Positions 32,287 through 35,086 of a stretch of 64,000 nucleotides of DNA are shown piece by piece; within the stretch, counting starts at the first letter, position 1, and every line of letters begins with the position of its first letter. The notes beneath the pieces were generated by a model, which did no database searches, was not told where the DNA came from, and saw only the letters and a list, made by a program, of their open reading frames with translations. The DNA is taken from NCBI RefSeq assembly GCF_057098645.1, contig NZ_CM169472.1. The stretch is one strand, 5' to 3'. The position numbers and the translations under genes are program-made.

Positions 32287-32631
32287 ATGACTATCGTTCG
32301 TATCGATGCTGAAGCCCGCTGGTCTGATGTAGTAATCCACAACAACACGCTCTACTACACTGGTGTACCGGAAAACCTCGACGCCGATGCCTTTGAGCAA
32401 ACCGCCAACACGCTGGCGCAGATTGACGCCGTGCTGGAAAAACAGGGCAGCAATAAATCGAGCATTCTGGATGCCACCATTTTCCTGGCCGATAAAAACG
32501 ACTTCGCGGCGATGAATAAAGCGTGGGATGCCTGGGTTGTCGCGGGTCATGCGCCGGTGCGCTGCACGGTACAAGCGGGTTTGATGAACCCGAAGTATAA
32601 AGTTGAAATTAAGATTGTGGCTGCGGTGTAA
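32287..32631 (+). CDS. yoaB: RidA/YjgF-family protein YoaB
   Basis: Start at MTIVRIDAEA gives 114 aa; tandem ATG at 32284 is an alternative; GAGGA upstream. Confidence 0.8.
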   Translation: MTIVRIDAEARWSDVVIHNNTLYYTGVPENLDADAFEQTANTLAQIDAVLEKQGSNKSSILDATIFLADKNDFAAMNKAWDAWVVAGHAPVRCTVQAGLMNPKYKVEIKIVAAV

Positions 32632-33052
32632 GCTTTATCGAAGCAAAATAAGTCAGACGATAATTTATCGATAATACTGGTCGGTTTTACATAAATCGAC
32701 CAGAGAATAAGATATTACTGTTGATGCTTCTGCTAATTCATTATTTATTTTTATAATTTCAATTTTATCTATAAAACTAACTATATAAATAAACATAACC
32801 ATGCCGTTGTGTTCGCCCTTTGATTAGCAACTCTGGTTTTCTTTCTTAGCTGAACAATCTGGTTATAGCGTGCGGACTGACCGTTAATTTTCTCCATCTT
32901 ACTGGATAACACACCATGAGCTGCTACCTTTAAAACACCTGAATGTCAACAGGTTAACTCGTGCCATATCGTTATAATCCCTTTGATATTAGATGCAAAT
33001 TAAGGTCATATATAGCCTTATCGATAACATGGTTAATTTTAAGGATAAGAAT

Positions 33053-33352
33053 ATGCCTGCTGTAATAGATAAAGCCCTGGATTTCATTGGTGCCATGGAT
33101 GTATCAGCGCCAACACCAAGTTCGATGAATGAAAGCACGGCGAAGGGAATCTTTAAATATTTAAAAGAACTGGGAGTACCCGCGAGTGCCGCTGATATTA
33201 CGGCGCGAGCTGACCAGGAAGGCTGGAACCCTGGGTTCACGGAAAAAATGGTTGGATGGGCAAAAAAAATGGAGACAGGTGAACGCTCTGTGATTAAAAA
33301 TCCTGAGTACTTTTCAACATATATGCAGGAAGAACTAAAAGCACTGGTCTGA
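33053..33352 (+). CDS. yoaC: DUF1889 protein YoaC
   Basis: Start ATG 33053 (MPAVIDKALD) after AAGGA gives 99 aa. Confidence 0.8.
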   Translation: MPAVIDKALDFIGAMDVSAPTPSSMNESTAKGIFKYLKELGVPASAADITARADQEGWNPGFTEKMVGWAKKMETGERSVIKNPEYFSTYMQEELKALV

Positions 33353-33471
33353 GTTAAATTTATATCAGCATAAATGGGTCAGGACGCTTTTAATCACATA
33401 TAAAAAGCGTCCTTTTTCTCACAATCAAATAATCATCGGCTTCTATAACGAAATCGATACGGATTAGTGTG

Positions 33472-33651
33472 TTACTCGTCTTCATCCTCAAAACGCGCCA
33501 CGATTCGCTCGCCGGAGTGGTTGGCACGCAGCTCTTCTGCCACCAGCGCGATTGCCTGGCCGCTGCTCATCCCTTGTGCCATCAGTTCCTGGATCCGCTC
33601 GACAGCTTTTTGCTGCTGTTCATGGGTGAGTGAAGGTAAACCTGCAAACAT
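33472..33651 (-). CDS. yoaH: UPF0181 protein YoaH (59 aa)
   Basis: Hand translation of the minus strand gives [59 protein letters not shown]; the ORF track lists only the antisense ORF here. Confidence 0.8.
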
Positions 33652-33724
33652 TGTTAACTCCTGCTAAATTGTTGGCGCTAATTATTTCATGCTACCCGGC
33701 ACATAGCCAGTAGAGTCAGGACTG

Positions 33725-35086
33725 ATGAAGACGTTATCTCCCGCTGTGATTACTTTACCCTGGCGTCAGGACGCCGCTGAATTTTATTTCTCCCGCTTAA
33801 GCCACCTGCCGTGGGCGATGCTTTTACACTCCGGCTATGCCGATCATCCGTATAGCCGCTTTGATATTGTGGTCGCCGAGCCGATTTGCACTTTAACCAC
33901 TTTCGGTAAAGAAACCGTTGTTAGTGAAAGCGAAAAACGCACAACGACCACTGATGACCCGCTACAGGTGCTCCAGCAGGTGCTGGATCGCGCAGACATT
34001 CGCCCAACGCATAACGAAGATTTGCCATTTCAGGGCGGCGCACTGGGGTTGTTTGGCTACGATCTGGGCCGCCGTTTTGAGTCACTGCCAGAAATTGCGG
34101 AACAAGATATCGTTCTGCCGGATATGGCAGTGGGTATCTACGATTGGGCGCTCATTGTCGACCACCAGCGTCATACAGTTTCTTTGCTGAGTCATAATGA
34201 TGTCAATGCCCGTCGGGCCTGGCTTGAAAGCCAGCAATTCTCGCCGCAGGAAGATTTCACGCTCACTTCCGACTGGCAATCCAATATGACCCGCGAGCAG
34301 TACGGCGAAAAATTTCGCCAAGTACAGGAATATCTGCACAGCGGTGATTGCTATCAGGTGAATCTCGCCCAGCGTTTTCATGCGACCTATTCTGGCGATG
34401 AATGGCAGGCATTCCTTCAGCTTAATCAGGCCAACCGCGCGCCATTTAGCGCTTTTTTACGTCTTGAACAGGGTGCAATTTTAAGCCTTTCGCCAGAGCG
34501 GTTTATTCTTTGTGATAATAGTGAAATCCAGACCCGCCCGATTAAAGGCACGCTACCACGCCTGCCCGATCCTCAGGAGGATAGCAAACAAGCAGAAAAA
34601 CTGGCGAACTCAGCGAAAGATCGTGCCGAAAATCTGATGATTGTCGATTTAATGCGTAATGATATCGGTCGTGTTGCCGTAGCAGGTTCGGTAAAAGTAC
34701 CAGAGCTGTTCGTGGTGGAACCCTTCCCTGCCGTGCATCATCTGGTCAGCACCATAACGGCGCGACTACCAGAACAGTTACACGCCAGCGATCTGCTGCG
34801 CGCAGCTTTTCCTGGTGGCTCAATAACCGGGGCTCCGAAAGTACGGGCTATGGAAATTATCGACGAACTGGAACCGCAGCGACGTAATGCCTGGTGCGGC
34901 AGCATTGGCTATTTGAGCTTTTGCGGCAACATGGATACCAGCATTACTATCCGCACGCTGACTGCCATTAACGGACAAATATACTGCTCTGCGGGCGGTG
35001 GAATTGTCGCCGATAGCCAGGAAGAAGCGGAATATCAGGAAACTTTTGATAAAGTTAATAAGATATTACGCCAACTGGAGAAGTAA
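33725..35086 (+). CDS. pabB: Aminodeoxychorismate synthase component I PabB
   Basis: 453-aa chorismate-binding-family ORF. Confidence 0.9.
   Translation: MKTLSPAVITLPWRQDAAEFYFSRLSHLPWAMLLHSGYADHPYSRFDIVVAEPICTLTTFGKETVVSESEKRTTTTDDPLQVLQQVLDRADIRPTHNEDLPFQGGALGLFGYDLGRRFESLPEIAEQDIVLPDMAVGIYDWALIVDHQRHTVSLLSHNDVNARRAWLESQQFSPQEDFTLTSDWQSNMTREQYGEKFRQVQEYLHSGDCYQVNLAQRFHATYSGDEWQAFLQLNQANRAPFSAFLRLEQGAILSLSPERFILCDNSEIQTRPIKGTLPRLPDPQEDSKQAEKLANSAKDRAENLMIVDLMRNDIGRVAVAGSVKVPELFVVEPFPAVHHLVSTITARLPEQLHASDLLRAAFPGGSITGAPKVRAMEIIDELEPQRRNAWCGSIGYLSFCGNMDTSITIRTLTAINGQIYCSAGGGIVADSQEEAEYQETFDKVNKILRQLEK

Follow-up and report, generated by a model that had tools for sequence, protein, structure and literature searches.

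The Escherichia coli small-protein gene yoaH and the antisense shadow open reading frame opposite it

In the 64,000-nt stretch of Escherichia coli DNA analysed here (the window; RefSeq assembly GCF_057098645.1, contig NZ_CM169472.1), the minus strand at 33472..33651 almost certainly carries the E. coli gene yoaH (UPF0181/YoaH family), divergent from pabB, and the 66-aa open reading frame (ORF) that covers it on the plus strand is a shadow ORF. The gene is already known as a conserved E. coli small-protein gene, and assigning it here is a routine matter of annotation and no discovery. The ORF tool used has a default cut-off of 60 aa, which the 59-aa yoaH misses by one codon; at this setting the plus-strand ORF was the sole entry over 33400..33700, in agreement with the original prediction, which had named it as the only ORF that the track reports at this place. 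The plus-strand ORF is thus reported because the real gene is one codon too short, and through the same effect naive ORF tracks would mis-strand the yoaH locus and similar ones. That a gene of 59 aa is lost to a fixed 60-aa cut-off while its antisense shadow of 66 aa survives is mainly a quality-control point. The coordinates of all features are collected in Table 1.

Table 1. Features at the yoaH locus (window positions) and loci with the Pasteurellaceae gene arrangement
Feature	Position	Strand	Remarks
yoaH CDS, UPF0181 / YoaH family small acidic protein	33472..33651	-	59 aa + stop, ATG start
Triplet ACA before the yoaH AUG	33652..33654	-	consistent with the MazF cleavage reported 3 nt from the start
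Shine-Dalgarno AGGAG of yoaH	33658..33662	-	6 nt 5' of ATG; upstream sequence GCAGGAGTTAACA followed by ATG
Antisense shadow ORF, 66 aa, read as not a gene	33467..33667	+	GTG start; from the ORF list
Second plus-strand ORF	33469..33633	+	54 codons; from the ORF list
yoaH-pabB divergent intergenic region	33652..33724	.	73 bp; from ORF and RefSeq coordinates
pabB, aminodeoxychorismate synthase component 1	33725..35086	+	conserved divergent neighbour; RefSeq
Hairpin between convergent yoaC and yoaH	33381..33413	+	11-bp stem; RNA fold
Pasteurellaceae context loci	L005 1915-3165; L006 1938-3647; L024, L031, L032

The minus-strand gene and its protein family

An in-frame TAG lies five codons 5' of the yoaH ATG (read from the sequence), and the ORF cannot be extended beyond it; 59 aa is therefore the maximal length and the start codon is unambiguous. 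The Shine-Dalgarno sequence stands within a GCAGGAG that is kept 5' of the gene in Klebsiella and Salmonella. The encoded protein (6.55 kDa) ends with EDEDE and has 11 Asp + Glu vs. five Lys + Arg residues, a pI of 4.70 and a net charge of about -6, so the minus strand does encode the 59-aa acidic protein that had been proposed from the sequence. The RefSeq CDS of yoaH (WP_000457334.1; locus L001, 3673-3852, minus strand) corresponds to positions 33472-33651 of the window on the same strand and is flanked by yoaC and pabB in the record inspected. In sequence, coordinates, strand and neighbours, no difference was found between the window gene and E. coli YoaH (WP_000457334.1, NF003476, PF03701). 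A 501-bp query spanning the gene (window 33300-33800) matched 5424 of 5426 complete E. coli genomes, with 100% identity in the listed RefSeq genomes. The yoaH of Bacillus subtilis is an unrelated chemotaxis-receptor gene in the literature, and has only its name in common with that of E. coli.

Family models gave the same assignment. Against Pfam PF03701 (UPF0181) the minus-strand peptide scored 100.9 bits (cut-off 23.5, E 2.8e-29), covering profile positions 1-49 of 50. Its score on the NCBIfam YoaH equivalog NF003476 was 114.2 bits (cut-off 72), with residues 1-59 lying on profile positions 1-60 of 60. Together with the RefSeq gene at the same coordinates and strand, these matches bear out the original prediction that the peptide is UPF0181 YoaH, and its divergence from pabB, claimed there as well, was found across a 73-bp spacer. 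A search of 5.8 billion proteins returned 640 homologues of the minus-strand peptide at E ≤ 1e-3, which carry the names YoaH/UPF0181 in many enterobacterial genera. Conservation was taken from an alignment of 42 sequences (A1), which has a near-invariant core of L8, Q13, A16, E18, I20, G27, A33, I34, V37, A38 and R42; A33 and I34 are invariant, the other core positions are conserved in at least 90% of the sequences, and the window protein has every core residue. It is a stand-alone protein in the size class of the family (~50-60 aa). Five long proteins with multi-stretch YoaH matches (P0140, P0155, P0203, P0207, and P0211) were treated as repetitive or composition-driven and not as informative domain fusions; in three of them (P0140, P0207, and P0211), matches to numerous unrelated Pfam families came with no qualifying stretch.

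Support for the translation of yoaH is indirect and comes from its mRNA, which is listed in Table 1 of PMC5001579 as MazF-processed, polysome-associated and cleaved at an ACA 3 nt from the start. The triplet before the AUG fits this site. In Salmonella and Klebsiella the ACA is replaced, with TC standing directly before the ATG, so any leaderless yoaH mRNA generated by MazF would be specific to E. coli.

The plus-strand ORF opposite yoaH

Position 3 of the yoaH codons is also position 3 of the plus-strand codons. The 66-aa ORF therefore sits in exactly the frame of textbook antisense "shadow" ORFs, i.e., the one that has its third positions in common with a real gene, and no difference from such ORFs was found; it is visible only through the length threshold. 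The other two positions are mirrored, with GC1/GC2 of 0.36/0.70 in the plus-strand ORF vs. 0.73/0.37 in yoaH. A stop in the plus frame needs a yoaH codon starting with CA after a codon ending in T, or a codon starting with TA after one ending in T or C. In E. coli yoaH none of the eight CA-initial codons (0/8) follows a T-ending codon and the T3 frequency is only 0.15, and for these reasons the plus frame stays open by chance for 66 codons.

Codon statistics were computed for both frames, as had been suggested for the strand call alongside a homology search with both peptides; the two checks agree on the minus strand. In a codon log-likelihood ratio trained on the 34 ORFs of at least 250 aa in the window, yoaH scored +0.43 and the plus 66-aa frame -0.06 bits/codon; the 34 reference ORFs had a ratio of 0.31 ± 0.10 with a minimum of 0.08 bits/codon, and the plus frame is thus under the lowest of them. 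The RSCU-based codon adaptation index was nearly equal for both strands (0.724 for yoaH vs. 0.718) and is uninformative on strand because the third codon positions coincide. The same holds for the synonymous to non-synonymous counts made between E. coli and four relatives, which were 24:11 in yoaH and 23:12 in the plus frame against Klebsiella, and 23:8 and 20:11 against Salmonella. With third positions in common, counts of the dN/dS type cannot choose a strand. What can decide is whether the ORF stays intact from genus to genus, along with family models, ribosome-binding sites and the composition of positions 1 and 2.

ORF integrity was compared across 12 orthologous loci (Klebsiella, Salmonella, Yersinia, Candidatus Erwinia, Candidatus Malihini, Thorsellia, Pasteurella, Photobacterium, and four metagenomic contigs). 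The yoaH frame has an ATG start and no internal stop in 12/12 loci, and the mirror frame on the plus strand contains between one and seven stops in each of them. For instance, the change of Ile20 from ATC to ATT in Klebsiella is synonymous in yoaH and makes a TGA in the plus frame, and in Salmonella the replacement of Thr9 by Ser (ACC to AGT) likewise makes a plus-frame stop. Third positions take 28 of the 35 nucleotide differences between the E. coli and Klebsiella yoaH. An intact yoaH beside a broken plus frame across loci indicates that selection keeps the minus frame open and is blind to the plus one.

That the plus 66-aa ORF is itself a real gene, or a second gene antisense to yoaH, is effectively refuted, and we give this reading practically no chance. 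In its favour, no other ORF at the locus is as long or exceeds 60 aa, and one 66-aa MetaClust entry is 98% identical to its peptide; this near-identical copy was its single match in the 5.8-billion-protein search, against the 640 homologues of the minus-strand peptide. Its synonymous and non-synonymous counts against Klebsiella and Salmonella almost match those of yoaH, as expected from coinciding third positions. Against it, neither the 66-aa nor the 54-aa plus-strand peptide matched any Pfam or NCBIfam family, even at E ≤ 1, the GTG start of the 66-aa ORF is preceded by no Shine-Dalgarno sequence, Ser, Cys and Trp make up 39% of its peptide, it bears no annotation in the RefSeq records inspected, its codon score is that of no long ORF in the window, and its frame is interrupted in all 12 loci, Salmonella and Klebsiella included. 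Of the marks by which a genuine antisense overlapping gene would be judged (conservation in orthologues, homologues beyond the species, an initiation signal, and codon statistics), none was found for this ORF. Conserved homologues for the plus-strand peptide and none for the minus-strand one had been named as the outcome that would speak against the original prediction; the opposite was found, and its suspicion that a length cut-off and an antisense artefact together give the wrong strand was well placed, the plus-strand ORF having neither family, wider homologues, Shine-Dalgarno sequence nor genic codons.

Homologous loci, predicted fold and possible mode of action

In Enterobacterales, E. 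coli, Klebsiella, Salmonella, Yersinia and Candidatus Erwinia have the divergent yoaH-pabB pair with nudL-sdaA after pabB, and the pair was also found in Candidatus Malihini; yoaH of the window, divergent from pabB-nudL-sdaA, shows this enterobacterial synteny. In the locus of the insect symbiont Candidatus Malihini olakiniferum (L012), no full-length genes were called on the yoaA/yoaB side, where there are only short ORFs and long gaps; this points to a retained yoaH-pabB pair in decaying surroundings. In Pasteurellaceae (Pasteurella and Mannheimia) a different arrangement is conserved, which has no relation to pabB and in which a yqcC-like gene (DUF446), a truC-like pseudouridine synthase gene, yoaH and a PM0630-family gene follow each other on one strand. 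The homologues there (PM0480 of Pasteurella multocida and those of Mannheimia) are UPF0181 proteins like YoaH and of similar size (~54 aa); the protein of the Pasteurella cluster lacks the C-terminal EDEDE tail that E. coli YoaH has.

When the genome collection was scanned with a degenerate DNA pattern, 26 loci came up (L014-L039). Of the 21 that are from Vibrio, one (L028) was too short for upstream genes, leaving 20 Vibrio loci with upstream sequence. In 19/20 the YoaH homologue comes last in a series on one strand, preceded by genes for an OmpR-type regulator and a DUF2861 protein and, in most cases, by a TraF_2-like gene (tblastn); the exception is L016, a second contig of Vibrio sp. Hep-1b-8, where only TraF_2 was found upstream of the homologue. 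A DUF3404 kinase gene is also present upstream in a Vibrio-like metagenomic contig (L007, 1-3168) and in Photobacterium sp. TY1-4 (L011, 1-3177). The order in Vibrio and Photobacterium is thus HK(DUF3404)-RR-DUF2861-(TraF_2 or NnrS)-UPF0181, with the PF03701 gene last. These PF03701 genes encode 47-58 aa, and two aligned representatives are 51% and 54% identical to YoaH.

Variants of this arrangement were seen as well. No vxrD-like gene is present in V. rumoiensis, V. litoralis, V. hibernica and two further strains (L015, L021, L023, L025, and L038), and DUF2861 directly abuts the yoaH homologue. In 5/5 Vibrio genomes with the two genes adjacent, DUF2861 and the yoaH homologue are separated by a stop codon. 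Two proteins of 365-368 aa (P0167 and P0188) combine an N-terminal signal-peptide-like sequence, DUF2861 and a C-terminal UPF0181 part, and may be either real fusions or gene-call artefacts.

The published operon vxrABCDE has the same order: VxrA is a DUF3404 kinase, VxrC a periplasmic DUF2861 protein, and vxrE (VCA0569), the fifth co-transcribed gene, is conserved across Vibrio and co-transcribed with the VxrAB (= WigKR) envelope-stress two-component system (PMC10237652, PMC4441509). In the vxr papers VxrE is without similarity to characterised proteins. The last place of the PF03701 gene in vxr-type loci, taken together with the published operon order, indicates that VxrE is a protein of the YoaH family. 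Vibrio cholerae VxrE (VCA0569) is therefore placed in the same YoaH/UPF0181 family as E. coli YoaH, judging from operon position in other Vibrio and in Photobacterium loci and from the UniProt name of VCA0569, "UPF0181 protein VC_A0569". E. coli YoaH is a family homologue of VxrE and not part of a vxr system: unlike vxrE, the E. coli gene has no DUF3404 kinase or DUF2861 gene adjacent and stands alone, and no vxrABCDE-type operon was found at this place in the window, where its neighbours are yoaC (convergent) and pabB (divergent). As a minor by-product, the cross-reference between YoaH and VxrE connects a y-gene of E. coli that is uncharacterised with an operon that is being actively studied.

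An AlphaFold2 model of YoaH was built from the 42-sequence alignment (mean pLDDT 78.6; blocks 11-40 at 94-97). It has helices at residues 10-25 and 30-53, a conserved GMSSG turn between them and a disordered acidic tail, and the near-invariant residues fall on both predicted helices and the turn. A Foldseek search of the model against the PDB gave nothing significant (best E 3.1), the two-helix hairpin being small and generic, and PDB sequence searches with the YoaH protein and the 42-member profile found no solved relative, returning only designed helical repeats and a marginal match to 2jml, the MerR-type CarA DNA-binding domain, which at E 0.017 was rejected as unusable for homology. No enzyme-like feature or catalytic motif, signal peptide or membrane segment was found in YoaH, and the protein is cytoplasmic.

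As to what YoaH does, we tentatively favour a small protein-binding modulator, acting probably after self-association into a helical bundle and being neither a catalyst nor a DNA binder; this mode of action, inferred from the features above, is possible rather than probable. It is judged likelier than nucleic-acid binding because of the missing signal peptide, membrane segment and catalytic motif and because of the net negative charge. It is improbable that YoaH works on nucleic acid, be it as a minimal helix-turn-helix-like protein or as an RNA-associated one, and the matches that could point to such a role are weak. The helix-G-[MI]-S-S-G-x-A-I-helix motif gave sub-threshold matches to helix-turn-helix models, and family members weakly matched RsmI_C (E 0.039, 7/42 members), HTH_63 (9/42 members), the CarA domain 2jml mentioned above (E 0.017) and a Mu transposase subdomain (E 0.97). 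However, every helix-turn-helix match of the family is under the curated cut-offs, the model consists of two helices only, with no recognition helix, and a net charge of about -6, a pI of 4.7 and an acidic tail do not suit a nucleic-acid role. Genes concerned with tRNA or translation do lie near some homologues outside the enterobacteria (a truC-like gene upstream of those in Pasteurellaceae, a trmB-like gene downstream of the one in Thorsellia, and SUI1 upstream in a single metagenomic contig), yet these are common housekeeping genes that differ between lineages. A more specific form of the modulator, namely a conserved cytoplasmic small-protein signalling modulator that would serve VxrAB and envelope damage in Vibrio and another partner in enterobacteria, possibly one tied to pabB and folate, is about as doubtful as the nucleic-acid role. 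If true, E. coli YoaH would have a definite place in regulation, and the strong fitness defect of Salmonella yoaH mutants on plant surfaces would be accounted for without pabB. The one relative with experimental work behind it is Vibrio VxrE, whose reported phenotypes are mild. Deletion of vxrE gave a competitive index of 0.70 in infant-mouse colonisation (PMC4441509), and the loss of VxrC, D or E was reported to alter the expression pattern of some matrix genes. Type VI secretion and VadR expression were unaffected in vxrCDE deletions; the three genes are hence dispensable for the VxrAB outputs tested so far, which counts against a modulator. So do the context of YoaH, which varies by lineage (pabB, the vxr operon, or yqcC-truC) and implies no single pathway, the fold search without significant match and the weak helix-turn-helix-like profile matches.

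Reported phenotypes leave room for a further explanation, in which yoaH matters mainly via the pabB control region and the mutant phenotypes are polar effects on pabB and hence on pABA/folate. Salmonella yoaH mutants were strongly outcompeted on muskmelon (competitive index 0.05-0.16) and not in LB (0.77-1.42; PMC12767474), and a defect on the plant surface with none in rich medium is, in our reading, the pattern expected of a biosynthetic auxotrophy. The two genes are also only 73 bp apart, and the divergent pair is kept across Enterobacterales, a reduced symbiont genome included. On the other side, the YoaH protein sequence is strongly conserved, as seen from the excess of third-position differences against Klebsiella (28/35), and the family is present away from pabB in Vibrio, Pasteurellaceae and Orbaceae, which together argue that the YoaH protein is under selection in its own right. 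An effect through pabB is unlikely to be the main role of yoaH, if somewhat less so than a role on nucleic acid. In other work, yoaH was among many genes associated with oxidant resistance in an overexpression-library (ASKA) screen (PMC8228696), and an uncharacterised yoaH was upregulated in a deletion strain, with speculation about oxidative stress (PMC12356324).

DNA flanking yoaH

The 73-bp spacer between yoaH and pabB must hold at least part of both promoters, and the half of it next to yoaH is conserved between E. coli, Salmonella and Klebsiella. A consensus scan of 33300-33800 found no sigma-70 promoter, and its sole "terminator" call falls inside pabB; no Rfam match was obtained in 32600-34000 at E ≤ 1. 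The only strong structure downstream of yoaH is the hairpin between yoaC and yoaH (-17 kcal/mol, z -6.1 on the plus strand, RNA fold), which was missed by the consensus scan because its 11-nt loop exceeds the limit of that scan. A T-run follows the stem on the plus strand only, the same stem being followed by GACCCAUUUAU on the minus strand, and the hairpin is therefore assigned to yoaC as its intrinsic terminator.

On the yoaB/yoaC side, Klebsiella and Salmonella lack both yoaC (annotated at 33053..33352, DUF1889) and the preceding 420 bp (together window 32632-33352), and the end of yoaB there lies 0-5 nt from yoaH. These 420 bp are AT-rich (GC 0.27-0.41 vs. about 0.52 nearby). At the yoaB/yoaH junction of Candidatus Erwinia there are instead two different ORFs of unknown nature, and the junction looks like an insertion spot. 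For both yoaB and yoaC the listed ORF exceeds the RefSeq CDS, since the longest-ORF rule sets the start too far upstream: 130 aa (32239-32631, GTG start) vs. 114 aa from 32287 for yoaB, and 119 aa (32993-33352, ATG at 32993) vs. 99 aa from 33053 for yoaC.
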